DNA of 64,000 nucleotides, from contig CAZFHY010000006.1 in NCBI GenBank assembly GCA_964519305.1, positions 86,099 to 150,098 on the forward strand. Reading direction: 5' to 3'. Below are positions 4,837-20,151 of this stretch, in pieces (within the stretch, counting starts at the first letter, position 1; each line of letters starts with the position of its first letter). Both the position numbers and the translations under genes were made by a program. Source of the stretch: Candidatus Undinarchaeota archaeon. GTDB taxonomy: Archaea > SpSt-1190 > JASMDC01. The notes beneath the pieces are model-generated. The model was not told where the DNA came from. It did not search any database and saw only the letters and a list, made by a program, of their open reading frames with translations.

Positions 4837-6534
4837 TCAGGCCTGCTCGACGAGCACATCGCCCAGGGCCATGAGGGGGACGCCCGTCTCCACGAACGTC
4901 TTCAGCGCGTCCTCGGGAGTGCACACAATGGGCTGGCCATGGACGTTGAAGGAAGTGTTGAGCACGATGCCGTCACCGGTCTCTTTCCGCACGCCCTCGA
5001 TGACACGTCGATAGGCAGGGTTCTCCTCGCCAAGGATCTGGGGGCGGGAGGAGCCGTCCACGTTGATGACGGCACGGAGCTGGTCTCTTAGACCGTCCTG
5101 GATCAGATATCCCATGGTCATGAACCTGTCCGGTGCGTCCACGTCCTTGAAGAACCGCTTGCTGTCCTCTTCAAGTACCGAGGGGCAGAAGGGCTGGAAC
5201 CACACCCGCTTCTTCACCTTCATGTTCAGGTCGTGCTTGGCCGTGGGCGAGTCTGCACGGGCCAGGATGCTGCGGTTCCCCAGCGCCCGCGGACCCAGTT
5301 CCATCCGGCCGTTGTACCAGAACACGATGTCGTTGGCGGCGATGCGCTCTGCGGCTGTGCCGGCAGCATCTTCGGACCGCTCCCACCTTACCTTCCCCTT
5401 GAACGCCTTGAGAGCAGTGAGCACCTCGTCCTCGCCGTACTCAGGGCCGAGGAATATATGGGGGATGCGCTCCGGGTGGACCACGTCCACCTCCTTGGCC
5501 ACTTTGAGGGCGGCTCCGATGGCCAGGCCCCCGTCTCCCATGTGCGGGAACACGAACCATTCCTTGACATCAGGGAGCAGGCGGATGTGCATGTTCATCT
5601 TGATGTTGGAAGCGATGCCTCCGTTCCATGCCACCGAGGACATCCCTGTCTCCTTCACGGCGTTGGCGAACAGCTGGCTCGTGAAGTGCTCGAACGCCCG
5701 CTGGGCCATGTGAGCGAACTGTTCGCGGGGATTGCGCCATAGCGTCCGCTGGAGCAGCTTGTATCGAGCGCCGGGGGAGAGCCGTGCCCGGACCCGCATA
5801 CCGTCCACCTCGTAGAGGTCGAAGAAGGGGTTCTTCTCATCGGGCACCTCGTAGGAGAAGTCCGCGAGCGACATGACCTTCCCCTCGTCCTCGAGGACGC
5901 GCATACCGATTAGGTGGGTGACCTCCTGGTAGAACAGACCCAGTGAGTCGCGGGTAGCCATGGTCTCCAGGTTCCTGACATCGCCGTCCTCAGCGATCCC
6001 CACGGTCGTGGACACACCATCGCCCAGGGCGTCCATTGTGACCACCAGGCTCTTGCGGAATCCCGAACAGAGGGCCGCAGCGGCAGCATGGGCCTCGTGA
6101 TGGTCGACGATGTGGAGGATGTAATCATGGTCGAACCCTGCCCGCGCCAATTGCGTGTGCAGAGCGCGTTTCGACAGAGCATGGAACAACCTGTTCGACC
6201 GGAGCTTTCCGGTAGAGTTCTGGATGAGCCGGTTGATCTCGACGTTCCATGGCGGGTCCACCTTGTGGCGACGGACCGGATAGTAGTCCTCCTTCACCTT
6301 GGGCCACACGCGGCCCAGGGTGACCGAGAAGTCGGATGTGCACCCTGCCACGACCTCGATGTCCGCCGGTTTGAGGTCGGCGGCCCCGAGACACCAGGAC
6401 AGGGCCTTGTGGGGGAAGTGGACCTCGAGCTTACGACGTGTGAACCGCTCCTCGTTCGCAGCGGTGATCACTCGTCCGTCGCGGACCACGCAGGCGCCGG
6501 CGTCATGGCCGTCCCACACGCCCAGTATGTCCAT
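4837..6534 (-). CDS. carbamoyltransferase, NodU/CmcH family
   Basis: 565 aa; N-terminal MDILGVWDGHDAGACVV..., internal HHEAHAAAA and C-terminal WNGGIASN...GDGGLAIGAA motifs typical of the NodU/CmcH (HypF/Kae1-like fold) carbamoyltransferases. Confidence 0.75.
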   Translation of the reverse strand: MDILGVWDGHDAGACVVRDGRVITAANEERFTRRKLEVHFPHKALSWCLGAADLKPADIEVVAGCTSDFSVTLGRVWPKVKEDYYPVRRHKVDPPWNVEINRLIQNSTGKLRSNRLFHALSKRALHTQLARAGFDHDYILHIVDHHEAHAAAAALCSGFRKSLVVTMDALGDGVSTTVGIAEDGDVRNLETMATRDSLGLFYQEVTHLIGMRVLEDEGKVMSLADFSYEVPDEKNPFFDLYEVDGMRVRARLSPGARYKLLQRTLWRNPREQFAHMAQRAFEHFTSQLFANAVKETGMSSVAWNGGIASNIKMNMHIRLLPDVKEWFVFPHMGDGGLAIGAALKVAKEVDVVHPERIPHIFLGPEYGEDEVLTALKAFKGKVRWERSEDAAGTAAERIAANDIVFWYNGRMELGPRALGNRSILARADSPTAKHDLNMKVKKRVWFQPFCPSVLEEDSKRFFKDVDAPDRFMTMGYLIQDGLRDQLRAVINVDGSSRPQILGEENPAYRRVIEGVRKETGDGIVLNTSFNVHGQPIVCTPEDALKTFVETGVPLMALGDVLVEQA

Positions 6535-6553
6535 GGCGCGAGTGTTCAGGGCA

Positions 6554-6568
6554 AGTTTATATAACCAT
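6554..6568. promoter_or_regulatory. TATA-box-like element (tttatataa) in divergent intergenic region
   Basis: AT-rich palindromic TATA-like motif about 25-30 nt from the start of the minus-strand carbamoyltransferase gene and upstream of the plus-strand flippase-like gene. Confidence 0.4.
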
Positions 6569-6612: not shown

Positions 6613-7647
6613 GTGTTCACTGTCGTACTGGGACTGGCCGTTGCCATAGCCATGTTCTGGACTGAGGACCCGACGGAACTGTCGCGTGTGTGGTCGACGG
6701 CCCGTAACGACTACCTGCTGGCCGGCGTGCTCCTCGTCATCATCACCCTCTTCATCAACACGGTCCGCTGGTATACGCTACTCCATCAGCTCGGCTATGA
6801 TGCAGGGTTCATCGACGTGTTCTGTCAAGTGAGCGGCCCCTTCGTGGTCTCCTCCCTCACTCCCGGCCGTGCCGGCGAGGTGTTCAAGCTCTATGCCGCA
6901 AAGCGCATCAGCTGCATCGATGTATCCCACTCCAGTGCTGCGCTCCTTATCGAGCGCGCGTGCGATCTGTCCGTGATGACCTCCTTCATCCTCTTGGGGC
7001 TTGTGACCGGCCTCGAACCGCAGTTGGGCGCCTATGCCTCCGCTGCGTACGCCACAGTGGCGTTCACCATGACGGTCATCGCGGTGATAGTGCTCTCGGT
7101 GCGCCACCCGGGCGTGCTGGCGATGGTGGTCCGTGTGCTCGAACTGGGGGGCCGTGTCGGACTGCCCGGGTGCGGACGTGGCGCCAAGAAGATCGATGAG
7201 TGCGCTCCCGCCTTCCACTCGGTCGCAGGACGGATCAACCTGCCTCTTATACTCGGCATCACGGCGTGCGTGTGGGTGCTCGACGTTGCGCGTATGTGGG
7301 TGCTGTTCAAGGCACTGGGCGTCAACGTTCCGCTGGTGCCCATAGGGTTCGTGTACTGTCTTTCCCTCCTGTTGGGCATAGTGTCCTATGTCCCTGGTGG
7401 ACTGGGGGTCACCGAGGGTTCAATGGTCGTGCTGTTCGGGCTGTTCGCCGTACCCGGGACCCAGGCAAAGATCGCCGTTCTCATCGAGAGGGTGTTCTCG
7501 TTCTGGCTGGCCCTCTTCATCGGGAGCATGGCCCTCTCCTACAAGGCCGACGTGCTGCTGTTCGACCTGTCCTCGGGAGATATGCCGGACCTGACCGACG
7601 CGGAAGCCGCCACATGCCCCGCGGACGAGGACGATGAAACTAAGTAA
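6613..7647 (+). CDS. flippase-like / lysylphosphatidylglycerol-synthase-TM-domain family membrane protein
   Basis: 344 aa multi-pass membrane protein; conserved LTPGRAGEVF motif; acidic C-terminal tail TCPADEDDETK. Confidence 0.6.
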   Translation: MFTVVLGLAVAIAMFWTEDPTELSRVWSTARNDYLLAGVLLVIITLFINTVRWYTLLHQLGYDAGFIDVFCQVSGPFVVSSLTPGRAGEVFKLYAAKRISCIDVSHSSAALLIERACDLSVMTSFILLGLVTGLEPQLGAYASAAYATVAFTMTVIAVIVLSVRHPGVLAMVVRVLELGGRVGLPGCGRGAKKIDECAPAFHSVAGRINLPLILGITACVWVLDVARMWVLFKALGVNVPLVPIGFVYCLSLLLGIVSYVPGGLGVTEGSMVVLFGLFAVPGTQAKIAVLIERVFSFWLALFIGSMALSYKADVLLFDLSSGDMPDLTDAEAATCPADEDDETK

Positions 7648-7681: not shown

Positions 7682-8734
7682 GTGGACCGCCTGAACAAAA
7701 AGCTCCTGCTCACCAGTGCCTTGGGCGCCGCCGTCCTCGCCGTCATGTTATGGTCGGTCGGCCCCGAACGCTTGACGGAGCTCGTGTCCGGGGCGCGACC
7801 GGGCTATATAGTCGCCGCAGCGCTCGCTATAGTGGTCCTCAACGTGATCGCCACGTTCCGCTGGCACCTGCTCATGTCGTCGCTCGGGTACGTGCTGACC
7901 CTCTGGGACACGTATTTCCAGATTAGTGGTGCTTTCCTTCTCTCGACTCTCACCCCGGGCCGTGCCGGCGAAGTGTTCCGGTTATACCTCTCCAAGCGTA
8001 TCAGCGATATCGACGCCTCCCACTCCGGCGCTGCGCTCCTCATCGAGCGCGCATGTGACCTTTCGGTGATGGCCGCTCTCATTCTTCTGGGGCTGGTGAC
8101 CGGTATGGGGGCGCAGTTGGGCGCCTTCGGGGACGCTGCCCGGGTCACCGTGGGTGTGACCTTCCTAATCGTCGCCATGCTCGTGCTCTCGGTGCGCCAC
8201 CGGTGGGCGATGGGCCTGGTGGTCCGGATCCTCTCTTTTGGAGGGCGACGAGGGCTCCCCGGGTGCGCGCGCGGTGCGCAGAAGATCGAGGAGAGCATCC
8301 CCGCGTTCCTATCGGTTGCACGTCGGGTGAGCGTGCCCGCTGTGTTCGGGATGACCTTGCTGATCTGGGCGTCCCAGGTCGCAAGGATGTGGTTCGTATG
8401 TGTCGCAGTAGGAGCCGAAGTGTCACCGATGGTCGTGGGCCTGGCCTACTGTCTCGGTATCCTTCTGGGTGTCGTGTCCTACATTCCTGGTGGGCTCGTG
8501 GTCACCGAGGGCACCATGGTCGGACTGCTCGTCGTGCACGGTGTGCCGACGGACATAGCGACGGTGGCCGTGGTGATCGACCGGCTGTTCGCCTACTGGG
8601 CCGCAGTAGTGGTCGGTGTGATGTCCCTTTCCTACAAGGCGGACGTGCTGTTGTTCGACTTCTCATCCGGCGAGATGCCGGACATGGTCGACGAGGAGAC
8701 GGCGACCTGTCCCCCGGACGATGATGAAGAGTAG
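7682..8734 (+). CDS. flippase-like membrane protein, tandem paralog of 6613-7647
   Basis: 350 aa; co-linear with upstream paralog at protein and nucleotide level (e.g. ...ccgggccgtgccggcgaagtgttc...); acidic tail TCPPDDDEE. Confidence 0.6.
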   Translation: MDRLNKKLLLTSALGAAVLAVMLWSVGPERLTELVSGARPGYIVAAALAIVVLNVIATFRWHLLMSSLGYVLTLWDTYFQISGAFLLSTLTPGRAGEVFRLYLSKRISDIDASHSGAALLIERACDLSVMAALILLGLVTGMGAQLGAFGDAARVTVGVTFLIVAMLVLSVRHRWAMGLVVRILSFGGRRGLPGCARGAQKIEESIPAFLSVARRVSVPAVFGMTLLIWASQVARMWFVCVAVGAEVSPMVVGLAYCLGILLGVVSYIPGGLVVTEGTMVGLLVVHGVPTDIATVAVVIDRLFAYWAAVVVGVMSLSYKADVLLFDFSSGEMPDMVDEETATCPPDDDEE

Positions 8735-8767
8735 TGGGACGTGTTCTGACACGTGATAAGTACTGTA

Positions 8768-8870
8768 TAGTTATGATGCAGTGTCAACTTCAGTCATAGT
8801 CCACTACATCTCTCAGTGATGGTTGGACGCTCCCGGTTTAGAATACTTGCGCGTAACTGTTTCGCAAAGG
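8768..8870. repeat. left copy of ~90-100 bp imperfect inverted repeat flanking the pilin-like cassette
   Basis: Reverse complement of 11385-11470 aligns with 8776-8865 (shared blocks tgcagtgtcaacttca, agtccac, cagtgatggtt, acttgcg.gtaac); roughly 75-80% identity by hand alignment. Confidence 0.6.
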
Positions 8871-9147
8871 TACCGGGACACAGAGAATTACTGAATTTTT
8901 GTTCAGTAACATGTGGATACCCTCTGTCGCCCTCATGGAAGCGAAAGGGCACAAGCTTCCCTTCAACAGTCAGCTAGCCAGAAGTCACCACATAGTACGA
9001 CCGTTCCAAAAAAGTACAGTAGACGCTGTATCTTCCTGCCATCACGCGAACATTGCGCGGACGTATCCCTGCCCAATCCTCCCACCTCGATATTGTAGGT
9101 GACGTGCCAGCAATGTCGCGTCTTGGGGGGCCCGGCCCGGTATCGAA

Positions 9148-9166
9148 AAGAATATATTATATTCAC
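9148..9166 (+). promoter_or_regulatory. TATA-box-like element (aatatattatatt) upstream of pilin-like gene
   Basis: AT-rich motif about 15-25 nt upstream of ATG 9179 in a 440-bp low-GC intergenic region; consistent with a leaderless transcript. Confidence 0.35.
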
Positions 9167-9178
9167 CCGTTAAGTCCC

Positions 9179-10933
9179 ATGGAAGGTGATCCGGTGGCAA
9201 GTAGAATCCTAACACTTTCATCTAGGAGTAACTCCGCTGGCCAGGCGGCCATGGAGTTCCTGATGAGCTACGGCTGGATGCTGGTGATCATCGTCATCGG
9301 CGGTGCCGCGATGTACTCCATGGGCATCCTCAACCCGGGCACCTACCAGAAGAAGGGCTGCGTCGGGTTCGAGAAGATCCATTACCGCGACCACCTGTTC
9401 CGCGGTACGGGCGAGGTCGGGCTGTGGACGGTGTGGTCGTCAGAGACCGAGCGCGAAAGCCAGTTCCAACTGCGTATGCAGAACGGGGCCGGGATCACCC
9501 TCCGCATCCGGGGCATCGACGTGGAGTATCCCGAGGGCGTGCACGTGACGTGGTCCGAGCGCGGCTACGACTGCGACTACTACAACACCGCTGACGACAC
9601 CGACTCGGGCTGCCAGGAGCAGAACGTGTCCGAGGGGGATCTCGCCACCCTCTCCATCGAGGACGTGGGGCGGGGGACTCTGGACCTGCGACACGGCGCC
9701 GTGTACCGCAGCAAGGTCAAGGTGACGTTCGACGCGTTCAACGCGCTGGAAGATCACTCTGAGGTGGCCATCTGCTGTGGCAAGATCGAGGGCGGCTCGA
9801 CCGCGTCCACATCGGGCGGCGGGAGCGGTTCGGGGTCCGGAACCGGTAGCGGTACGGGCTCCGGTACAGGTACTGGCAGCGGTACGGGATCCGGGACCGG
9901 GAGCGGCACCGGGGCGTCCTGGGGCCCCTGCATGGCCACGTGGGAGAAGGACGACGGATCGGACTACGAGATCATGTATGCCTCGTGGAACGGCGCGTGG
10001 AGCACCGCCGCCAAGGTGACCGACAACGCAATCTATGATAGCGCTCCTTCAATATCCTGCACCTCGTCGTCGTACTGCATGGCCGTCTGGTTCGCGTACG
10101 ACGGATCGGACTACGAAATCATGTACGCTACGTGGAACGGCGCCGCGTGGAGCGCCGCCGCCGCGGTGACCGACAACGCGGTCTCCGATACCAATCCCAT
10201 CGTGTCATGCCCGACCACGTCCTTCTGCATGGCCACGTGGAACGGGCATGACGGGGACAGCGAGATCATGTACGCTACGTGGAACGGCGCCGCGTGGAGC
10301 GCCGCTGCCAAGGTGACCGACAACGCACTCTCCGAGTCCATGTCCTCCGTGTCCTGCGCCACATCGTCGTCCTGTATGACCGCGTGGCGCGTCCTAGATG
10401 GGAATTACGAGATCAGGTCCGCCGCATGGAACGGTGCTTCTTTGAGCGATGCCGAGGTGACCGACTTCGCGTACAACGACATCCAGCCCTCCGTCTCCTG
10501 CCCCTCGGCGAGCTCCTGCATGGTCACGTGGAGCAGGCACCAGGGGTCCAGCGGCGGGGACTACGAGATCATGTCCGCTACGTGGAACGGCGCCGTATGG
10601 AGCGCTGCCGCCCTGGTGTGCGACAACTCGGACCAAGACTACGAGCCCACCGTGTCCTGCCCGACCACGTCCTTCTGCATGGCCACTTGGCACGCGTCCG
10701 GCGTCGGGATCAAGTACGCCTCTTGGAACGGCGCCTCGTGGGGCGCGGAGGCGACGGTTGTCGGATCGGGGATCAATCCCCAGGTATCATGCACGACATC
10801 GAGCTCGTGCATGGTGGTGTACTCCGTGAACGATATCAAGAGCGCTACATGGAACGGGAGCTCATGGAGCGACGCGGGGACGGTGGACACCGCCGCAGGC
10901 ACGAACTATCCGTACGTCTCGTGCGTGGGGTGA
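9179..10933 (+). CDS. archaeal pilin-like protein with class III signal peptide, Gly/Ser/Thr linker and ~8 tandem ~55-aa Trp/Cys repeats
   Basis: ORF track 9053-10933 (TTG maximal start); ...SAGQAAMEFLMSYGWMLVIIVIGGAAMY matches archaeal prepilin-like signal; repeat unit contains DYEIMYATWNGAAWSAAAKVTDNA...SC.TSS.CMA.W; start 9179 (ATG) or 9251 uncertain. Confidence 0.6.
   Translation: MEGDPVASRILTLSSRSNSAGQAAMEFLMSYGWMLVIIVIGGAAMYSMGILNPGTYQKKGCVGFEKIHYRDHLFRGTGEVGLWTVWSSETERESQFQLRMQNGAGITLRIRGIDVEYPEGVHVTWSERGYDCDYYNTADDTDSGCQEQNVSEGDLATLSIEDVGRGTLDLRHGAVYRSKVKVTFDAFNALEDHSEVAICCGKIEGGSTASTSGGGSGSGSGTGSGTGSGTGTGSGTGSGTGSGTGASWGPCMATWEKDDGSDYEIMYASWNGAWSTAAKVTDNAIYDSAPSISCTSSSYCMAVWFAYDGSDYEIMYATWNGAAWSAAAAVTDNAVSDTNPIVSCPTTSFCMATWNGHDGDSEIMYATWNGAAWSAAAKVTDNALSESMSSVSCATSSSCMTAWRVLDGNYEIRSAAWNGASLSDAEVTDFAYNDIQPSVSCPSASSCMVTWSRHQGSSGGDYEIMSATWNGAVWSAAALVCDNSDQDYEPTVSCPTTSFCMATWHASGVGIKYASWNGASWGAEATVVGSGINPQVSCTTSSSCMVVYSVNDIKSATWNGSSWSDAGTVDTAAGTNYPYVSCVG
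9790..9916 (+). repeat. low-complexity GS/GT-encoding tract (linker) inside pilin-like gene
   Basis: ggc/agc/acc/ggt codon repeats encoding GGGSGSGSGTGSGTGSGTGTGSGTGSGTGSGTG. Confidence 0.7.
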
Positions 10934-11304
10934 GCCGCGGCGGGGGCACCGTGGACGGGAGCGGGAACGTGTACTTGGTGGATACCGAGAACCACCGCAT
11001 CCAGAAGTTTACCTCGACAGGGACCTTCATCACAGAGTGGGGAGGCGGGGGCACGGGCGACGGGCAGTTCTCCACCCCACAGGGAATTGATATCGACACC
11101 TCCGGAAGGGTGTATGTCGCCGACGCGGGCAACAACCGCATTCAGGTGTTCGACACGGACGGAACCTTCATCACGAAGTGGGGGAGTTGGGGTACGGGCG
11201 ACGGGGAGTTAATCACCCCGAGCAATATGATCACGGTCGGGAGCGATACCATCTACGTCGTGGAATCGGGGAACAACCGGGTGCAGAAGTTCACCATATC
11301 GTAG
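10930..11304 (+). CDS. NHL-repeat segment (about 2.5 NHL repeats) in a different frame from the pilin-like gene; either a frameshifted C-terminal domain or a small coupled ORF starting at GTG
   Basis: Frame-1 translation GVSRGGGTVDGSGNVYLVDTENHRIQKF...GRVYVADAGNNRIQVFD...IYVVESGNNRVQKF shows NHL motifs; GTG 10930-10932 overlaps stop TGA 10931-10933 of the upstream ORF; no ATG in frame; upstream frame-1 sequence is Arg-rich nonsense. Confidence 0.4.
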   Translation: MSRGGGTVDGSGNVYLVDTENHRIQKFTSTGTFITEWGGGGTGDGQFSTPQGIDIDTSGRVYVADAGNNRIQVFDTDGTFITKWGSWGTGDGELITPSNMITVGSDTIYVVESGNNRVQKFTIS

Positions 11305-11384
11305 CGGACCGTTGTAAGTGGTGCCCCTGTCGCGTCCAGGGGGGCGGACCTACCTGACCGCTGGACGTGAGGTCATCCCGCGAC

Positions 11385-11470
11385 CGTTACACGCAAGTGT
11401 TTTAATCTGGAGTACCTAACCATCACTGTGAGGATGGGTGGACTCTTGTTGAAGTTGACACTGCACAAAA
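11385..11470. repeat. right copy of imperfect inverted repeat (inverted relative to 8768-8870)
   Basis: See left copy; lies between the end of the NHL segment and the 3' end of the convergent MBL-fold hydrolase gene. Confidence 0.6.
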
Positions 11471-11507
11471 GTTTCTGAGTACCCTTGCATCACTTCCTAC
11501 CAGAGTC

Positions 11508-12269: not shown

Positions 12270-12777
12270 CCTCCGGCGGAGCACGCAGTGCTGCCCAGGG
12301 CCTTACGCCTCTTGAGACCATCACTGCGAATCCGCCCCATCCGACCGCTAGCAGCAGAAGCTGTGCGGCGATGAATACCTCCCGGGGGAACAGCCCCCAC
12401 GTCGACACCAGACACACGGTCTCGGAGAACGGGCGCAGGCACCGAGCATTACCTTCCCAGAGGATAGGGAGGCCTATGCCCAGATCGATAGCGGCGTGGA
12501 GCAGAACACCAGCTAGGCACACGGGCAGGACACGACGGAACCGTTGCGGGTCCCTGGCGAGCATCCACGCGACCACGGCCGCTAGCAATGGCAGAACGAT
12601 AAGGTTGCCCATCACGGTAGCATGGGTGCGTGCCAGCACGCTCCACCCGAACACCACCATCACCAGGTCTATGTCCGGTACCACGCTGGCCACGAGGAAC
12701 GCGCGGGTCCGCTCCCGGTCCAGTCCCTGTCTAGAGGCGATAAGGAGCGCGAGCATGTAATGTGTGAGCGGGTCCAT
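12259..12777 (-). CDS. membrane-bound metal-dependent hydrolase-like protein (YdjM-like)
   Basis: 172 aa, starts MDPLTHYMLALLIA, four hydrophobic helices with conserved His/Asp positions. Confidence 0.5.
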   Translation of the reverse strand: MDPLTHYMLALLIASRQGLDRERTRAFLVASVVPDIDLVMVVFGWSVLARTHATVMGNLIVLPLLAAVVAWMLARDPQRFRRVLPVCLAGVLLHAAIDLGIGLPILWEGNARCLRPFSETVCLVSTWGLFPREVFIAAQLLLLAVGWGGFAVMVSRGVRPWAALRAPPEDGT

Positions 12778-12781
12778 GGGT

Positions 12782-14197
12782 TCACCCGCGGCCTAGGAGC
12801 CGGCGGGCGGCCTTGGCACCTGCCCAAGCCATAGTGCGGACCTGAGCGTCACCCTTCAGAGCGGCGAGCGTCTGCCGTCCCACGTACCCGGGGCGCAGGT
12901 AGAAGGCCCGGTTGATGCGCTGCCAGTACTCCCGGAGAAGCTCGGGTGGTGCGGTGGGATTCTCCATCACGGTCTCGTTGAGGAACACGTACCGCTCCCA
13001 GTCGTCCGTCTGCAGGAGATCGTTCTTCTCGGCCCATGCGTGGAGCCCGGTGCCCGGGTACGGTGTGGCGAAGGACACCTGAAGGTAGTCGCAGTCGACC
13101 TCCTGGACGAGCTGGAGCGTCTCCTCCAGCGTCTCCTGGGTCTCCCCCGGCAGTCCCAGCATAAGGAATCCCATGGTCTTGATGCCCTCGTCGTGCGCCA
13201 ACGTGAAGGCGTTCTTGATCTGCTCCACGGTGATGCCCTTGCGCATGGCGTTGAGGAGTTTCTGGGAGCCGGACTCTATACCGAACTCGATGAGGTCGCA
13301 CCCCGCTTCGTGCATGGCCGCCAGCACGTCCTTGTCCACGGTGTCGGCCCGCGTGAGGGCCTTCCACCGCAGGTCGTCGGGCAGACCCCGTTCTACGAGC
13401 TCATGGCACAGCTCGATCGACCATGAACGGTCCACGGCGAACGTGTCGTCCAGGAAAGAGATGAGCTTGACGCCGAACTCGCGCCTGTCCCGCTCTATCT
13501 CCTCGGCGACGTTCCGCGGGGAACGTGTGCGCAGCGTCCCACCGAACACCCAGGGGCATGAGCAGTAGATGCACCGGCCCGGGCAGCCACGGACAGCAAT
13601 TACCGTGGAGAAATGATCAGATTCAGGCGCCCTGTACCGTTCCATGGGCAGGAGATGGAGGGCTGGGAATGGCAGGTCGTCCAGTGGGTCCACCAGCGGT
13701 CGTTGTGGCCCGTGCACTATCCTCTTGCCTTTACGGAGCGACACACCGGCCACCCGGGATAGCTTGCTAGGACCTTCCGGGAGCGAGTCCACCAGCTCGG
13801 GGAGGGTGCGCTCCCCCTCACCACGCACCAGCATATCGATAGATGGGAGCCGTGTGAGGGTCTGGTCCGGGACCATGCTGGCATGGACACCGCCCAGAAC
13901 TGTGGTCGTTTCAGGTCGCAGGGTCTTGACACCATGGGCGATGCGGCCGCACAGGTCCGCAGTGGGAGTTGTGGCGGTGAGCCCTACAACGTCGGGTTCG
14001 GCGTCCAGCACCCGACGGACCGCCTCTTCCTCGGAGAGCTGGAGCGCATTGGCGTCAAGTATGTCCACCGGTACGCCGGCCACTTCAAGGCACGCGGCGA
14101 GGTAGGCCAGCCCGAGCGGGGGGCCTACTGATATCTGGGCGATGGCCTCGGTCCGTGACTGGTACGGCGGGTTCACCAGCAGCACGGATGGTGCCAT
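12782..14197 (-). CDS. B12-binding domain radical SAM protein (class B)
   Basis: ORF track 12782-14251; N-terminal B12-binding-like region (VLLVNPPYQ...GLAYLAA), CxxxCxxC motif (CPGRCIYC); start proposed at internal Met (MAPSVLL) because the maximal start collides head-to-head with the divergent gene. Confidence 0.7.
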   Translation of the reverse strand: MAPSVLLVNPPYQSRTEAIAQISVGPPLGLAYLAACLEVAGVPVDILDANALQLSEEEAVRRVLDAEPDVVGLTATTPTADLCGRIAHGVKTLRPETTTVLGGVHASMVPDQTLTRLPSIDMLVRGEGERTLPELVDSLPEGPSKLSRVAGVSLRKGKRIVHGPQRPLVDPLDDLPFPALHLLPMERYRAPESDHFSTVIAVRGCPGRCIYCSCPWVFGGTLRTRSPRNVAEEIERDRREFGVKLISFLDDTFAVDRSWSIELCHELVERGLPDDLRWKALTRADTVDKDVLAAMHEAGCDLIEFGIESGSQKLLNAMRKGITVEQIKNAFTLAHDEGIKTMGFLMLGLPGETQETLEETLQLVQEVDCDYLQVSFATPYPGTGLHAWAEKNDLLQTDDWERYVFLNETVMENPTAPPELLREYWQRINRAFYLRPGYVGRQTLAALKGDAQVRTMAWAGAKAARRLLGRG

Positions 14198-14249: not shown

Positions 14250-16004
14250 ATGCTCGGACAGGCAGGGGGGCTTGTGGCAGGTTTCCTGACCTGGACCTAT
14301 GCTCTTCTCGTACCGGGACTGCTGTGGGCGCTGGCCCTCTATCCTGGCCGGACGCTCATCTTCACGCTCGTGACAGGCCTGTCGATCGGTCTCTTCGTGA
14401 TGCCCGTGGGCGCTTTCATGTTCGCTTGGCTGACCGGCACGGTCGTCTCTGTACCGCTGGTGCTCTCTCTCGCTACCCTGCTCTCTCCGCTGGCCCTTGT
14501 CGTACGATGGCCTCGAGCACCTTCCCGGGGCGATTCCGGGGACGGTGGGGCCGCAGCACTGATCCTGGCGCTCCTTCTCCTAATGGGTGCGCTCTACGAG
14601 GGGACCGCTCTTGGTTACTGGGACACCTACATCGTGGCCCCCGCTCTGTTCATCATCGATGAGCCCATTGCCTTCGTGGACATGAACGGCAACCTCCTGG
14701 TGAACGCCACCCTCACCGGAAAGCTGTTCGACAATCTCAGGGACGATACGACCTATGGCATCATCACAAAGGACCAGCGCCTGGGTGCGGGTGTGCTGGT
14801 CTCGGTCCATGCCCTCCTCCTGGGCGATGTGGGGTTCAGACTGGCCTTCGCCTGCTACCACGCGCTTGGTGCGGCCGCGATCTACCTGGCGGCCCGACTG
14901 CTCTTCAGTTCGTCATGGATGGGCATTGCCGCCGCCACGCTCCTTGGGTTCAACGGGTTCGTGCTCACAGCAGATACCCTCAATCCCAACGCCATCGCCA
15001 TGTCCATGAGCGCTGTGATGACCATGTTGCTGCTCCACAGGCCGCGAGGGAGGCAGTGGGCGATCATCGGTCTGCTCCTGGGCACCCTTGGTGGGGTACG
15101 GAACATCGCACTGCTCTTCGTCCCTGCGGTCATCTGGGCGACCCGGCCCTGGGACCGGCGACGGCTGGTGCTGCTCCTGGCAACGGCCTTCATCCTCAAC
15201 GCACCTTTCCTCGCGTGGAACAGGTTCGCCTTCGGTAGTATGTTCACCCACGCCGCTATGTACGCCGGGTATGAGGGGTGGCGGCCCCAGTTCGAGCACC
15301 AGTTACCGGTCCTGGGCACGTCGTTCAAGTTCAACGGGATGCTCAACTGGCCGTTCTACGATAACATAGTCCGGACACCTCACTTCCCATTTCCTGTGTT
15401 CCTCCTCCTGCCGCTTACTGTCATACGTTCCTTCGGCCTCGTCCTCTCTGCACTGGGGCTCGCTGGCATCGCTTTCCTATGGCGGGACGACCGCGCCGCC
15501 ATTATCCTACTTCTGCTCTGGGCCCTTCCATATTTCATGTTCTTCCTACCGCAGGAGAACTGGTCCGAGCTGAAGATGACCTTCCTCCTCCCTATCTATC
15601 CGGCAATGGTGCTATTGGTCCTGGCCGGTCTGCGCGGATCACGCCCGCTGCACATCGCCGTGTCGCTCCTCCTGCTCATCGTGTTCGTACAAGTGGCCGC
15701 GACGAGCCAATACGAGCCCGATCCGCGGTGGCCCGAGCGCTTCCCACATTCCATGGCCAACGCGGGCAGGGAGCTGCCCGACGAACTGCGTGATACCCAG
15801 TTCTTCTTCCACCTGCCGGAGAACGATGACGAACTGATCCACCAGCGCCAGCGGTTCACGGCCGGGAACATCTTTCCATCGATCCGCACCGTTCCCCGTG
15901 AGCGTTTGAGCGGTCTGAGAGCGGCCCTCCGGACCGAGATGAGCGAGCGGAACAATGATGGTAGGCGGACCATGATCGCGGTATGGAACTACATCTACGG
16001 ATGA
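14250..16004 (+). CDS. polytopic membrane protein, putative GT-C-type glycosyltransferase-like
   Basis: ORF track 14142-16004; about 12 predicted TM helices, IIDEP loop motif, ~585 aa from MLGQAGG; assignment by architecture only. Confidence 0.45.
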   Translation: MLGQAGGLVAGFLTWTYALLVPGLLWALALYPGRTLIFTLVTGLSIGLFVMPVGAFMFAWLTGTVVSVPLVLSLATLLSPLALVVRWPRAPSRGDSGDGGAAALILALLLLMGALYEGTALGYWDTYIVAPALFIIDEPIAFVDMNGNLLVNATLTGKLFDNLRDDTTYGIITKDQRLGAGVLVSVHALLLGDVGFRLAFACYHALGAAAIYLAARLLFSSSWMGIAAATLLGFNGFVLTADTLNPNAIAMSMSAVMTMLLLHRPRGRQWAIIGLLLGTLGGVRNIALLFVPAVIWATRPWDRRRLVLLLATAFILNAPFLAWNRFAFGSMFTHAAMYAGYEGWRPQFEHQLPVLGTSFKFNGMLNWPFYDNIVRTPHFPFPVFLLLPLTVIRSFGLVLSALGLAGIAFLWRDDRAAIILLLLWALPYFMFFLPQENWSELKMTFLLPIYPAMVLLVLAGLRGSRPLHIAVSLLLLIVFVQVAATSQYEPDPRWPERFPHSMANAGRELPDELRDTQFFFHLPENDDELIHQRQRFTAGNIFPSIRTVPRERLSGLRAALRTEMSERNNDGRRTMIAVWNYIYG

Positions 16005-16008
16005 GGTC

Positions 16009-17292
16009 TTAGCTCAACCGAACAAGCTTCTCGCACGGGAACTGGAATCCCTCTGGCATTGGTCGTCCTGTCGGGGGCGCCAAGCAGTAGATGATCGTGT
16101 CGCAGTCCGTGAAGAGGACCGGGAAGCACACCCCCTCGTCCGGAAGCTCGCCCTCATCGGGCTGTGGCAGGTCGAGGCAGATGTTGGTCCCTTTCACCTT
16201 CGACGGCTTCAGAGGCTGGCCGTCGCAGTAGGGCATCTCGCCCTCGCAGTTGGAGTTCACCGTGTCGCCCGTGAACGTGAGAACACGGGCGTACTGTGTG
16301 ACCGGGATCATGCACGGTAGGTCCTCGTTCGCAGTGGTCGCACACCCGATCTGCTTCCACGCACCGTCCAGGGAACATCCCGAGGGATTTGGATCAGTGG
16401 TGGGTGCTGGGGTCCCGAGCGGCGGTACTTCCCCCCGCTCGAGCTTGAGGCACGGCGGTTCCCCCTCCTCGAGAGGCTCGTCGTCCACGGGACAGAAGAA
16501 GAGCGAGTCGCAGTCGATGAACGTGAAGGGGATGCAGGGCTCACCCTCCTCTCTCTCCATGCAGAGCTGGTTCCCGTCAACGATCTTGCCCGTGAACGCC
16601 TCGTCCTTGTTACAGAAGCTACCGCGGCATCCGAATGTCCCCGTGCCCCCGTCGGTGTAGGTGAGCATCACAGTGGCATAAGCGAGAGGTGCAGGGCTCG
16701 GCATTTCGCGGCCTTCCAGGTCGGTGTGCCCGGTCTGGACCCATGATCCTGTGAGGGAGCAGCCAGTTGTTCCGGTGGCCGGCGTCGCTGATGGAGACGT
16801 GACAGGTATCGGGCTGGCCGTGGCCGCGATCGGATTCGGTGTCGGGCTGGTTGTCGCATCTACCGTATTTTCGGTCATGGGCGACGGATCCTCGTCAACG
16901 GTCGGTTCCGGCTCGGTGCCGTTCATCAACGTCTCCCAGGGGACGGACGTGGGAACCGCTCCATCGCCCCCACTGGTCCCCGTGAGCCCGTCCAGGTAAC
17001 CGCCCTGGTACCCGATGAGCGCCACGCCCAGAACGAGCACCGCAACCATGCTCAGAAGGACAGGAAGACTGCTGGATGCGGCCTCTACGGCCACGACCTC
17101 CTCGACAGGGGCGGCCGTCGCCTCCACGTACGCGGCCTGGGCCTGGAGCGACTGGAATGCGGTGTCCACGGCGGCGGGGTCGTATCCGGACTGGATCATG
17201 TAGGAGCGTACCTGGTAGGGGGTGTAGCCCTGGTTGAGATACTCCTGGATATAGTTGGCGTAGTAGCTCGTGTAGTCCTGGTACGCCTCCAC
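16009..17292 (-). CDS. type-II membrane protein with conserved N-terminal cytoplasmic module and two extracellular Cys-rich repeats
   Basis: 427 aa; N-terminus YTSYYANYIQEYLNQGYTPYQVRSYMIQSGYDPAAV, single TM, Thr/Pro linker, two ~115-aa 8-Cys modules. Confidence 0.55.
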   Translation of the reverse strand: MEAYQDYTSYYANYIQEYLNQGYTPYQVRSYMIQSGYDPAAVDTAFQSLQAQAAYVEATAAPVEEVVAVEAASSSLPVLLSMVAVLVLGVALIGYQGGYLDGLTGTSGGDGAVPTSVPWETLMNGTEPEPTVDEDPSPMTENTVDATTSPTPNPIAATASPIPVTSPSATPATGTTGCSLTGSWVQTGHTDLEGREMPSPAPLAYATVMLTYTDGGTGTFGCRGSFCNKDEAFTGKIVDGNQLCMEREEGEPCIPFTFIDCDSLFFCPVDDEPLEEGEPPCLKLERGEVPPLGTPAPTTDPNPSGCSLDGAWKQIGCATTANEDLPCMIPVTQYARVLTFTGDTVNSNCEGEMPYCDGQPLKPSKVKGTNICLDLPQPDEGELPDEGVCFPVLFTDCDTIIYCLAPPTGRPMPEGFQFPCEKLVRLS

Positions 17293-17315
17293 GATATTCG
17301 TATGGCAGTTGGGTA

Positions 17316-18086
17316 TTAAGTGGATTTGCCTTCGCGGGCCAGCGCCTCGCAGGGCACTTCCACGCCCGCGGCCGGGGGGCGGTCCACTGGCGAGAGGCAG
17401 TACACCATCGTATCGCAGTCAACGAACTCCAGCGGGTAGCAGAGGCCCGTGGTGTCCATGCAGATGCGGCGACCATCCTCTGTCCTGGCGGACGTGCCCT
17501 CGCCCGGGGGACAGTACGGTTCTTTCCCCTCGCACTCGAGAACGGCGGTCCCGCCCTCATCGATTGTGACTATCCGCGCATAGTCCTCCAGTGCCACAGC
17601 GCATGGTCGCTCCTCACCGTCTGTGGAGGCGCACCCAATCTGACGCCAGCGCCCTTCGATCGGGCACTCGAGCTCCGGGTCCACGCTCCGTGGCGTTGGT
17701 GTGGGGCTGGCTGAGGCGGTGCGACGCTGTGCGGTTCTTGTACTCGTGACGGCCTGGAGCTGCGTGCGGACAATAGGTTCAGCCTGGATCCCGCTGGTAG
17801 AGGTGAGGTTGTGGAGGAGACCTTGCTGATATGCAACAACAAACCCTCCTATGAGCACCAACACGGCAAGGAGAGCGACCACAGTTCCCCGGGATTGTCC
17901 TTCATTGGTCGGTGTCGGCGGCTCCTCCCCTTTAACGAGGGCCTCCGCAGTGGCCTCGTCGTACCCCATCTCGATGAAGAGCTCCTTGACCTGCTCGGGT
18001 GGGTAGCCCATCTGCAGGTACTCCTGAGCATAGGATGCATAGTAGCTGGAGTACTGGGCATCCCCCATCGGGAGGATACTCATCAC
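17316..18086 (-). CDS. paralog of 16009-17292 (same N-terminal module, one Cys-rich module)
   Basis: 256 aa; N-terminus YSSYYASYAQEYLQMGYPPEQVKELFIEMGYDEATAEALV, TM, Cys-rich ectodomain. Confidence 0.55.
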   Translation of the reverse strand: MMSILPMGDAQYSSYYASYAQEYLQMGYPPEQVKELFIEMGYDEATAEALVKGEEPPTPTNEGQSRGTVVALLAVLVLIGGFVVAYQQGLLHNLTSTSGIQAEPIVRTQLQAVTSTRTAQRRTASASPTPTPRSVDPELECPIEGRWRQIGCASTDGEERPCAVALEDYARIVTIDEGGTAVLECEGKEPYCPPGEGTSARTEDGRRICMDTTGLCYPLEFVDCDTMVYCLSPVDRPPAAGVEVPCEALAREGKST

Positions 18087-18123
18087 TAGTGCTTTAATTG
18101 GTTTCTATGGGACCTCTGCAAGC

Positions 18124-18651
18124 TCAGAGCTTTTCGAAAGTGAGGTCCTTGGGTGGCATGCACATGGAGGCCACGGTGATGTGGAGTCGGTCCTCCTCGC
18201 CCTGGTAGATGGCAAGTGTCCGTGCGTCCATGGCGCGACCCTCGGATACCCGGTAGGCCTTGTTCCTGGAGAGGTAGTGGGAGCCGGTGAACGTCACGTC
18301 GAGCCACTTTTCCTCGCTCATGCCGTTGCCCCGTCCTTGTAGATGGAGCCCCTGCTCGTCCTCGTAGATGAGGAGCTTCGGGGCTTCGGGGAGGAGGGAG
18401 TCGGCCTGGATGAGATAGCCGTTGTCCAGCTCCATGTAAGAACCGTTCTCGAAAAGCGACTCTACGAGGTCGAGCTGGTTGTAGAGGGACTCGAGCGCGG
18501 CCCCGGGCACGGGTCTTAGTGAGCCCGCGAACCCGACGTTGTAGCCGGCGGCGGCGGGCGAGGCGAAGGGTTCGAAGACCTCTAGCCCCGATACGTCCAA
18601 TCCGGTCCCGGCCTCGGCCGCGTCCATATCGAGAAGATACATGATCATCAC
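18124..18651 (-). CDS. hypothetical protein
   Basis: 175 aa ORF with balanced composition; overlapping alternative frame 18086-18676 is Arg-rich and rejected; TATA-like tttaaaaa at about 18690 upstream. Confidence 0.4.
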   Translation of the reverse strand: MMIMYLLDMDAAEAGTGLDVSGLEVFEPFASPAAAGYNVGFAGSLRPVPGAALESLYNQLDLVESLFENGSYMELDNGYLIQADSLLPEAPKLLIYEDEQGLHLQGRGNGMSEEKWLDVTFTGSHYLSRNKAYRVSEGRAMDARTLAIYQGEEDRLHITVASMCMPPKDLTFEKL

Positions 18652-18689
18652 TTGTCCTTGCGGACGGAGGCGACAAGCAATGGTCCGTT

Positions 18690-18850
18690 TTTAAACATTT
18701 TCTTTGGATTTGACACGAAATCGCACGATTTGGGCTTATTCCCCGAAAAAACGGCTATTAAGCCTTAATAACATCTTTGAGCGTCTGTAGGGCGTCGAAG
18801 CGCACCGCATACTTTCATGCTATGTGAACTACCCCTCACCAATTAGAGGG
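18690..18850 (-). ncRNA. putative omega-RNA (reRNA) region at the right end of the tnpB element
   Basis: By analogy with IS200/IS605 TnpB systems the guide RNA overlaps the 3' end of tnpB and extends downstream; an oligo-T run (gccgttttttcgggg on the minus strand) lies near 18745; boundaries not determinable by eye. Confidence 0.25.
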
Positions 18851-20150
18851 GCTTCCCGCTTCGATACTGTTTCCAGCTCCACGGGCGCATCGGGTGGTCC
18901 CCACCCTGAGCGATTCTGAATGTTGATTGCTGCGTTCAGGTCGCGGTCAATGGTAAGGCCGCAGTTCCAGCAGCTATGTACTCGAACCGACAGGTCCTTC
19001 TTCACTAGCATACCACAACGGCTGCACATCTGAGAGGTGTTTTTCGGGTCAACCAGTACTACCTTCCCACCAGCCTCTTCCGCTTTGTAGGTGGTGTACT
19101 GGATGACCTTGTTCCAAGAAGCATCAACAATGGACTTTGCTAGATAGTGGTTTTTCATCATATTGAGGATATCGAGTTTCTCGAAGGTGATGGTCGAGTA
19201 GTTATCAGCAAGCTGACGGGAGAGCTTGTGGGCGAAGTCGGTGCGCTGGTTTCGGACCTTGCGGTGCACTTTGGCAAGCGCCTTCTTAGCCTTTTTCCTA
19301 CGGTTCGAGCCAATCTTTCTTCTTGAGATCCGACGCTGACGCGTCTTGATATTTTTCTCCGACTCTCGGAGGAAGCGTGGATTCTCGATGACGGCCCCAT
19401 CGGAGAGAGTGGCGAAATTCTCAAGGCCGACATCCACGCCGACGGCGATCCCGTCATGTGATCTAGCCTCGACTTTTACCTCACAGGAGAAGACGACGTA
19501 CCACTGATCAACATCGCGCTTGACGGTGCAGGTCTTTATCCTACCTTCGAGCGGTCGATGTAGCTTAATGCGAACGGGACCGATCTTCGAGAGTTTGAGA
19601 TGCTGTTCATCCGGAGAAAGTGAGAAGCCGCTCTGCGGATAGGTGAATGAGTCATATCTCCCCTTGCCCTTGAACCGGGGGTATCCGGGAGTTTCACCGT
19701 TCCTCACACGACGGAAGAACGCGTCGAACGCCTTCCTCAACCTCCGGAGGACATCCTGAAGTACTTGGGAGTGGACCTGTTGCTGATACTCATCCCTGTT
19801 TCCCGGGAGGGCGTCCTGTTGGTCCCTGTAGGTGACGCATCGTTGCTCATCCTTCCAGGCATCCGTGCGTTCTGCAAGTGCGTTGTTATAGAGCCTACGG
19901 CAGGTCTCGAGTGTGAATATTAGAATCGATTCCTGAGACTTGTTCGGATACAGACGATATCTGTAGCTACGTATCACTGTTTCCCCGTCCCCCACCAGAT
20001 ATCCTATTGGATGAAATAGTATTGCCGTGAATAAATAGGACTGGGAGGTGGCGTGCCAGTACTCGTTCAGGAAGTAACTTTCGAGTAAGTCACCTCCCTC
20101 TCGGAAGGCGACATCCCGCCGAAACGTAGAAAAGAGTTAGTCATCATACG
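18700..20150 (-). mobile_element. IS1341-like (tnpB-only) insertion element, approximate boundaries
   Basis: tnpB plus flanking lower-GC ends; imperfect hairpin gggaggtg...cacctccc at 20043-20097 near the putative left end. Confidence 0.45.
18829..19995 (-). CDS. tnpB: IS200/IS605-family transposase accessory protein TnpB (RuvC-like nuclease with zinc finger)
   Basis: 388 aa; canonical N-terminus RSYRYRLYPNKSQ, central RuvC-like region, C-terminal CxxC...CxxC zinc finger (CSRCG...CWNCG); no tnpA adjacent. Confidence 0.85.
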   Translation of the reverse strand: MGDGETVIRSYRYRLYPNKSQESILIFTLETCRRLYNNALAERTDAWKDEQRCVTYRDQQDALPGNRDEYQQQVHSQVLQDVLRRLRKAFDAFFRRVRNGETPGYPRFKGKGRYDSFTYPQSGFSLSPDEQHLKLSKIGPVRIKLHRPLEGRIKTCTVKRDVDQWYVVFSCEVKVEARSHDGIAVGVDVGLENFATLSDGAVIENPRFLRESEKNIKTRQRRISRRKIGSNRRKKAKKALAKVHRKVRNQRTDFAHKLSRQLADNYSTITFEKLDILNMMKNHYLAKSIVDASWNKVIQYTTYKAEEAGGKVVLVDPKNTSQMCSRCGMLVKKDLSVRVHSCWNCGLTIDRDLNAAINIQNRSGWGPPDAPVELETVSKREAPLIGEG

Positions 20151-20151
20151 A

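Follow-up and report, generated by a model that had tools for sequence, protein, structure and literature searches.

A candidate non-autonomous adhesin gene cassette bounded by inverted repeats at a palindromic site in an Undinarchaeota genome

We analysed a stretch of 64,000 nucleotides from the genome of a Candidatus Undinarchaeota archaeon (contig CAZFHY010000006.1), here called the window. All coordinates are positions of this whole 64-kb window. L001-L025 denote the contigs that we compared with it, and P0001-P0009 are paralogue proteins. Near its left end, between two convergent genes, a gene for a putative surface adhesin lies between two imperfect inverted repeats, which we call the arms. 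With its arms the block spans about 8775-11466 (2.69 kb). It is best explained as a non-autonomous gene cassette that is bounded by terminal inverted repeats, carries one member of a variable adhesin family, and targets a palindrome similar to repetitive extragenic palindromes (REPs). We put the probability of this explanation at roughly 0.55.

The arms form a significant inverted repeat, and the block they enclose is absent from the same place in a sister genome. The empty site of the sister is a palindrome, halves of which flank the block in the window. The inner parts of the arms are homologous to the promoters of the adhesin family. Their outermost sequence recurs at two other palindromes that are interrupted in the same way. 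Among the readings offered by a first-pass annotation of this DNA, the terminal inverted repeats of a non-autonomous mobile cassette fit best: the presence or absence of the block at a palindrome and the recurrent terminus now speak for that reading, while the enzyme it needs was not found.

The inverted repeats

The first-pass annotation described an inverted repeat of roughly 75-80% identity, and this description holds. In a BLASTN search against the whole window, 8777-8862 on the plus strand aligns with 11383-11465 on the minus strand at 77.6% identity over 85 columns, with one indel (E=2e-12), which is not near background. A MAFFT alignment of the arms recovers every conserved block listed at the time. 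Either arm used as a query retrieves the other, and nothing else rises above noise in the window. A repeat finder reports the arms as two pairs (8777-8838 / 11404-11465 and 8833-8860 / 11383-11410), and the 16-mer TGCAGTGTCAACTTCA occurs exactly twice in the window, once on each strand. There is no third copy within the 64 kb: an nhmmer profile built from the arms matches only the two.

Comparison with related sequences extends the arms to about 8775-8879 and 11378-11466, somewhat longer than originally annotated. They are relatively AT-rich in a window of about 60% G+C. The terminal 30 nt are about 83% identical between the arms, including a block kept at 16 of 16 positions, versus 70% in the inner parts. 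Termini that are kept better than the rest would fit a functional constraint on the ends of the unit.

From left to right, the unit and its edges consist of the following features:

8760..8774, no strand: left half of the target palindrome, 15 nt, GTACTGTATAGTTAT, outside the unit; the palindrome is intact at this site in L010
8775..8804, minus strand: left arm, terminal part, GATGCAGTGTCAACTTCAGTCATAGTCCAC; the segment best conserved from arm to arm, not homologous to paralogue genes
8805..8879, minus strand: left arm, inner part, putative adhesin-family promoter and leader, pointing left (nhmmer profile and alignment)
8888..8909, no strand: intact 22-nt AT palindrome, TTACTGAATTTTTGTTCAGTAA, with its usual flank; part of a minus-strand intergenic module of the array type
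8950..9193, plus strand: non-coding stretch including the putative promoter of the cargo gene itself; no homologue in related loci
9194..10933, plus strand: cargo gene; class-III-signal-type N-terminus (..AGQAAMEFLMSYGW..), N-terminal module, Gly/Ser/Thr linker, seven repeats of about 49 aa
10941..11304, plus strand: 3' remnant of an NHL-type paralogue, out of frame, about 2.6 blades (Pfam NHL, E=3.6e-22)
11322..11345, plus strand: GC-rich hairpin CCCCTG..CAGGGG; the same kind lies downstream of several genes in L013, L014 and L015
11378..11440, plus strand: right arm, inner part, putative adhesin-family promoter, leader and GTG, pointing right (nhmmer profile and alignment)
11441..11466, plus strand: right arm, terminal part, GACTCTTGTTGAAGTTGACACTGCAC (alignment and comparison of termini)
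11467..11482, no strand: right half of the target palindrome, 16 nt, AAAAGTTTCTGAGTAC, outside the unit

An empty site in a sister genome

The only related genome in the species-representative collection is the metagenome-assembled genome (MAG) of Candidatus Undinarchaeales archaeon isolate ETNP3_MAG_31, to which L010 belongs. L010 is about 87% identical to the window over about 15 kb, and the carbamoyltransferase of the locus is 93% identical. In L010 the second of two flippase-like genes and the gene of a metallo-beta-lactamase (MBL) fold hydrolase converge, about 100 nt apart, and neither the cargo gene nor the arms are there. The spacer holds a perfect 22-nt palindrome, GTACTAAAGCATGCTTTAGTAC; no other hairpin in the 21.7-kb locus has a stem of 9 bp or more.

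The window keeps the two sides of this palindrome, GTACT / AGTAC, just outside the arms. Given the empty site in L010 and the palindrome halves around the unit, the whole 8775-11466 block, arms included, was inserted or removed there. The flanks retain 15 and 16 nt of a 22-nt palindrome, so that about 8-9 bp of its centre would have been duplicated. A search for further syntenic relatives through the MBL protein returned one close cluster only; the next match is 52% identical and has other neighbours.

The two genomes differ elsewhere, too. Relative to window positions 16000-16022, L010 has about 1.85 kb extra (1098-2969), coding for a CcdA/DsbD-like membrane protein and a thioredoxin/Rieske-like lipoprotein, and the borders of this segment have no inverted repeats.

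Mosaic arms

Each arm is a mosaic. The inner 75 nt or so are a copy of the family promoter, and the terminal 30 nt or so are of a different sequence. In BLASTN comparisons with related loci, the DNA immediately upstream of every paralogue of the cargo gene matches the inner half of each arm, in the orientation that leads out of the cassette. With an nhmmer profile of nine paralogue upstream regions, the right arm is found at E=3.4e-9 and the left arm (8879-8808) at E=3.8e-9. The segment common to the arms and the paralogue upstream regions reads ACCGTT.C.CGCAAGT-TTTTA(A/T)AT-...-ACCATC.CTG.GAG..GGTGG.

In this segment CGCAAGT, which resembles a transcription factor B recognition element (BRE), adjoins a TATA box (TTTTAAT / TATTCTAAA), and a GTG follows 29-31 nt downstream, in both arms as in the paralogues. 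In the left arm, the BRE is the reverse complement of 8845-8851, the TATA box (TATTCTAAA) that of 8837-8845 and the GTG start codon that of 8802-8804. The right arm has the BRE at 11392-11398, the TATA box (GTTTTAATC) at 11399-11407 and the GTG at 11438-11440. In the paralogues this GTG starts the signal peptide MAAVGRRGQAAIEFL..; in the arms the promoter homology ends at it. The inner part of the right arm is 80% identical to the region upstream of P0003 (in L015), and the promoter parts of the two arms are no closer to each other than to the paralogue promoters.

Judged by sequence, the inner parts are putative archaeal BRE/TATA promoter units, homologous to the promoters of real genes. This goes beyond the first-pass annotation: the arms are copies of the 5' control region of the cargo's own family, fused to a distinct conserved terminus. 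The consensus of the terminal 30 nt or so is G(G/A)TGC(A/T)GTGTCAACTT...GTCCAC. Between the GTG and the end of the arm the sequence reads GACT.T.....TGAAGTTGACACTGCA and has no detectable kinship to paralogue coding sequence. Both arms leave the promoter homology for this same non-family sequence at exactly the same base, after GTGG.

The terminal 45 nt were also considered as decayed signal-peptide coding sequence of a paralogue. This origin was rejected: 26 of 28 local alignments are no better than those of shuffled sequences, and the nhmmer match stops at the GTG.

Upstream of the first flippase-like gene, the region 6531-6565 (..GGCAAGT-TTATATAAC) weakly matches the family promoter profile as well. 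GCAAGT with a TATA box may thus be the general promoter consensus of the organism, and the similarity between arms and family promoters may be partly generic.

Recurrence of the terminus at other palindromes

In related islands, 22-nt AT-rich palindromes of the form TTACTG-N10-CAGTAA form a repeated family downstream of genes. L015 (21 kb) contains seven intergenic copies, four of them at an exact 49-nt period, and further copies occur in L013 and in the window:

L015, 19279-19447, 11611, 12713 and 19916: palindrome copies
L013, 19695: palindrome copy
Window, 8888-8909: palindrome copy

These sequences are short, intergenic and repeated downstream of genes; they are similar to REPs and to bacterial interspersed mosaic elements (BIMEs). 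The repeats at the 49-nt period in L015 are not identical to each other, and no cas genes were seen with them.

Three contigs, L013, L016 and L017, have a minus-strand match of the arm profile, to the outer part of an arm, at their extreme ends. L016 and L017 share one context, which is unlike that of L013. In each context a TTACTG...CAGTAA palindrome is broken after nucleotide 15 and continued by GGTGCTGTGTCAACTT..., the terminus of the window arms. L013 is homologous to L015 up to nucleotide 15 of the palindrome and then reads GGTGCTGTGTCAACTTTGG.., while L015 completes the palindrome. L013 (interrupted) and L015 (intact) are a second pair of occupied and empty sites. L016 shows the same type of junction as L013 next to other genes, and both junctions of the window have this layout.

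That three contigs end inside the terminus is expected if a multi-copy or near-perfect inverted repeat collapses the assembly. L013 and L017 come from one sample and agree at every position of the 40 nt of arm that are visible, where both contigs end. They could be the two flanks of one element.

L016 also carries, at about 12675-14118, an insertion sequence (IS) of the IS110/IS1111 type (domains DEDD_Tnp_IS110 and Transposase_20) with subterminal inverted repeats ATAGAAATTCTTGA; the same element is found in L017. In L016 it sits inside an AT palindrome, between GTTACTGAATTTAAATTCAG and GTAAT. Hence these palindromes serve as insertion targets.

As possible parents of the cassette we considered this IS110-like element and the IS4/5-like and IS605-TnpB elements of L022. 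All were rejected, as their ends are unrelated to the arms. L022 is from the same MAG as L010. Compared with L021 it has a 3.4-kb insertion (17166-20524) with an IS4/IS5-type DDE transposase and an IS605 OrfB/TnpB gene. The insertion lies between a Lactamase_B and an alpha/beta-hydrolase gene, and its ends (..TGTCCGACAATTC..) have no relation to the arms.

The cargo gene and the interior of the unit

Between the arms we find what had been annotated: an AT-rich promoter, a repeat gene with a class III signal and an out-of-frame NHL piece, with no transposase or recombinase reading frame among them. The cargo protein is 560-584 aa long, depending on the start chosen (alternative starts are called at 9179, 9251 and 9263). 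Its N-terminus shares the motif ..AGQAAMEFLMSYGWMLVIIVIGG.. with all paralogues, and a helix is predicted at residues 21-47. Such a long N-terminal helix would fit a pilin-type anchor. No Pfam or NCBIfam model matches the N-terminus, so the label pilin-like rests on the motif; the N-terminal domain is predicted at low confidence.

The C-terminal repeats are predicted to fold into a seven-bladed beta-propeller, mostly with a predicted local distance difference test (pLDDT) score above 90. The nearest solved structures are the fucose-binding lectins PLL/PHL of Photorhabdus (TM-score 0.72-0.77, normalised on the target). The predicted head of the cargo protein is therefore a propeller resembling that of fucose lectins.

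The cargo gene belongs to a small, clade-specific family. The first 180 residues or so of the cargo protein are 68-84% identical to those of the other members, and the C-terminal parts differ:

P0001 and P0002: same 49-aa repeats as the cargo
P0003 and P0005: NHL propeller heads
P0004 and P0009: FBA domain heads
P0006-P0008: Calx-beta/Laminin-G heads

It appears to be a modular adhesin family in which a constant N-terminal module and a Gly/Ser/Thr linker are combined with interchangeable heads, and it appears confined to an Undinarchaeales-like clade. The paralogue genes form arrays in variable islands, which also contain nucleotidyltransferase/HEPN and other toxin-antitoxin pairs, AAA_14/DUF4143 ATPases and an IS110-family element. 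Two Logan contigs, L006 and L009, end at window position 9283, in the region coding for the signal peptide and hydrophobic helix that is conserved among paralogues. Short-read breaks at this position suggest that the source population contains further family members outside the window.

The promoter of the cargo gene is of another kind. A BRE-like CGAAAAG (9144-9150) is followed by a strong TATA box (9151-9164), with 29 nt spacing to the GTG at 9194. The upstream region is 30% identical to the family promoter, which equals background. The cargo gene would thus not use the promoter of its own family. Neither blastn nor tblastx detects homology to 8950-9238 in related loci.

The remaining interior looks like array DNA. 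Positions 8873-8949 match, on the opposite strand, the gene-downstream elements of L015 and L013. The NHL piece is colinear with the 3' ends of NHL paralogues in L013 and L015. It is the remnant of a neighbouring array gene and not a frameshifted extension of the cargo, and it testifies to an earlier deletion or domain replacement. Read on the plus strand, the right-hand end runs from the cargo gene through the NHL stub, GC hairpin, family promoter and GTG to the terminus. On the minus strand, the left end runs from the AT palindrome with its usual flank through family promoter and GTG to the terminus. The order of elements at both ends is that of the arrays in relatives. Because its interior is colinear with array DNA, the unit looks like a captured piece of an island.

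Weighing the explanations

If the unit is a mobile cassette, it would have carried an adhesin gene from a family island to a spot between two convergent housekeeping genes, namely the centre of a 22-nt palindrome. The move would have occurred by transposition or by site-specific insertion, at a fixed position of the palindrome. The terminal 30 nt or so are the part most likely to be recognised by a recombination enzyme, which would be encoded elsewhere and act in trans. The outward promoters would be carried along and would yield, at most, short transcripts antisense to the 3' ends of the adjacent genes.

Several points weigh against a mobile cassette. No transposase or recombinase with matching ends occurs in the window or in any locus examined (about 0.3 Mb of related DNA), and the window has no IS110-like gene. 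The two putative copies of the target duplication agree at only 5 of 9 positions, and palindromy makes direct and inverted readings of them equivalent; with a palindromic target and diverged flanks, a target-site duplication is not demonstrable. With an identity of only about 77% between the arms, and promoter parts that are no closer to each other than to those of paralogues, the element must be old or its inner parts converted. L013 and L016, at the other palindromes, show no more than the outer 45-65 nt of an arm, at contig ends, and the little that continues inward has no obvious match to the promoter part of the window arms. Since the genomes also differ in gene content elsewhere without inverted repeats, an indel alone is nothing special here. 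Searches of public sequences say little: a 20-base degenerate pattern has no match in public genome contigs and a viral scan gave none, while a gapped pattern run on metagenome contigs retrieved only L011 and L012, AT-rich chance matches, and missed the locus of the window itself, although other look-ups locate it in JGI metagenome samples.

The unit could also stem from a single accident. A break at a fragile palindrome could have been repaired with a fragment of an adhesin array whose ends happened to be oppositely oriented intergenic modules. The inverted repeat would then be a by-product of repeated promoter modules. Within the promoter family the arms' inner parts are nothing unusual, the intergenic structure of arrays is matched colinearly at either end of the unit, neither an enzyme nor a clear target duplication was found, and the two genomes also differ by indels without repeats. 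However, both arms switch to the same non-family terminus at exactly the same base, and this terminus recurs beside palindromes broken alike in two unrelated contexts, which independent accidents would not reproduce. Such a one-off capture is a serious rival, although it must treat a recurrent, position-specific terminus as coincidence; we consider it rather unlikely.

The arms could also have been kept for what they transcribe. As outward promoters they could drive a short RNA, either one antisense to the 3' end of the neighbouring convergent gene or a small RNA that comprises the conserved terminal 45 nt or so. BRE, TATA box and the spacing of 29-31 nt to the GTG are retained in both arms as in expressed paralogues, and conservation is highest in the segment that they would transcribe. 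Yet no open reading frame is conserved beyond 4-14 codons, no oligo-T terminator is consistently present, and the segment has neither a stable or conserved fold nor an Rfam family. A conserved terminus is equally expected of an enzyme binding site. We regard a role in RNA production as the reason for the arms as improbable. Other candidates for the arms, namely a C/D-box small RNA, a tRNA fragment or an attachment (att) site, were dismissed: by eye, the arms contain no box motifs or tRNA-like sequence.

The first-pass annotation also proposed phase variation, in which recombination between the arms flips 2.6 kb and switches the expression of the surface protein. Inverted repeats around an adhesin gene of a variable family invite this idea, and the perfectly kept 16-bp block in both arms could be a crossover site. 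But the segment is known in a single orientation. Records of the adjacent carbamoyltransferase come from 24 contigs of several marine metagenomes. Among these contigs, the four longest and another five that are shorter are 100% identical to the window over the shared region, and neither the place nor the orientation of the cassette differs. A search with the cargo protein finds 11 contigs, all with one context and one orientation, and the same holds for L001-L004, L024 and L025. Consensus assemblies would hide a minor orientation; Logan contigs at the unitig level traverse the left arm unbranched. The unit has no recombinase gene inside it or next to it, and no recombinase domain is found among the genes within +/-10 kb of it. 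Moreover, the cargo promoter is inside the segment and both arms hold the same outward module, so flipping would alter no connection between promoter and gene. Phase variation by inversion is very improbable. An inversion of the promoter region alone (8800-9192, between GGTGG cores) was rejected as well, as there is no inverted repeat at those points.

The last proposal, two copies of a structured RNA or terminator element at the 3' ends of the flippase and MBL genes, in sense with them, is scarcely credible: each copy does lie 40-45 nt past a stop codon, both facing the same way with respect to the gene that ends there, but this position follows from a palindromic target between convergent genes, folding is not significant (z of -0.88, 0.02, 0.15 and 0.31 against shuffled sequences for both arms and both strands), the folds of the two copies differ, Rfam is empty at the gathering threshold and at E<=1, L010 has both genes without the element, and the promoter homology of the arms lies on the strand antisense to the neighbours.

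Genomic neighbourhood

On the left, the unit is flanked by two tandem LPG_synthase_TM (flippase-like) genes on the plus strand, and on the right by the MBL-fold hydrolase gene on the minus strand.

6613-7647 and 7682-8734, plus strand: tandem paralogous LPG_synthase_TM genes

The tandem genes sit in a cell-envelope cluster with a carbamoyltransferase, a B12-radical SAM gene, YdjM and a large CW_binding_2 protein. The cassette is thus placed in a neighbourhood of envelope biosynthesis. The only tRNA of the window, a tRNA-Tyr (GTA) of 82 nt with the anticodon at position 32, lies at 18510-18591.

Discussion

Mobile insertion cassettes (MICs, for example the IS231-derived MIC231 of Bacillus cereus) and miniature inverted-repeat transposable elements (MITEs) with cargo hold passenger genes between inverted repeats and have no transposase of their own. 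The unit described here is similar in its passenger gene without transposase, its inverted-repeat bounds, its presence or absence in close genomes, and a terminal sequence that recurs, so far at contig ends, at more than one locus. It differs in that no parent IS with matching ends is known, and in its mosaic arms of about 105 nt, of which only the outer 30 nt or so resemble a terminal inverted repeat. In addition, the target is the centre of a palindrome, there is no clear target duplication, and the host is an archaeon of the DPANN type.

The palindromic target has parallels, too. IS1111/IS110-family elements insert into REPs; IS110 elements lack long inverted repeats. Like them, the cassette occupies a fixed position in a short palindrome that is repeated downstream of genes, and the IS110/IS1111-like element of L016 uses the same family of palindromes. 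However, the cassette has long inverted repeats, its ends are unrelated to those of that element, and the insertion points differ: the cassette follows nucleotide 15 of the palindrome, the L016 element about nucleotide 19-20.

Outward-facing promoters are known from MITEs of the Correia type (Correia repeat enclosed elements, CREE, about 150 bp) and from some IS ends. There, as here, terminal repeats hold promoters that read out into neighbouring DNA. The promoter of the cassette, in contrast, appears to be a full archaeal BRE/TATA unit plus a start codon, taken from the family of the cargo, and the element is 2.7 kb long and contains a gene.

In the sapA promoter inversion of Campylobacter fetus and the pilV shufflon of R64, inversion reconnects one promoter to alternative coding cassettes. 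Common to these systems and ours are a surface or pilus protein family, constant N-terminal and variable C-terminal parts, and inverted copies of a 5' region. In our unit, by contrast, the 5' regions point outward and have no coding sequence after them, a single orientation is seen, and there is no linked recombinase.

A final likeness, no more than a lead, is to IS26 (IS6 family), which ends in GGCACTGTTGCAAA and makes an 8-bp duplication. The terminus of the relatives, GGTGCTGTGTCAAC, agrees with this end at 9 of 14 positions, a match noticed after the fact, and the putative duplication of 8-9 bp would be IS6-sized. No IS6-type transposase was seen in any locus examined. As the search for a parent transposase, which would define such a link, yielded none, the cassette is not shown to belong to a named family.

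The genomes of DPANN archaea, Undinarchaeota among them, are small, and these organisms presumably depend on contact with other cells. It is poorly known how they vary their contact surface. The locus displays an adhesin family with one putative pilin-type anchor and exchangeable heads (PLL-like propeller, NHL, FBA and Calx-beta/Laminin-G), which normally resides in a hypervariable island alongside toxin-antitoxin genes and insertion sequences. It also displays one concrete route by which a family member may reach a new place, as a repeat-bounded block dropped into a REP-like palindrome.

A wider and more doubtful proposal, which we make tentatively, is that the unit represents an undescribed kind of archaeal mobile cassette. 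Such a cassette would have repeats of about 105 bp, each a recognition end of about 30 bp joined to an outward family promoter, and would insert at a fixed position of REP-like palindromes. It might then spread genes of lectin-type, pilin-anchored adhesins within the small genomes of Undinarchaeales (DPANN) and so diversify the surface with which these cells could contact a host. Should the block not be mobile, it would be an ordinary strain-level indel. If it is mobile, it would provide a defined element, a target and a testable route of adhesin turnover in a lineage without genetics.

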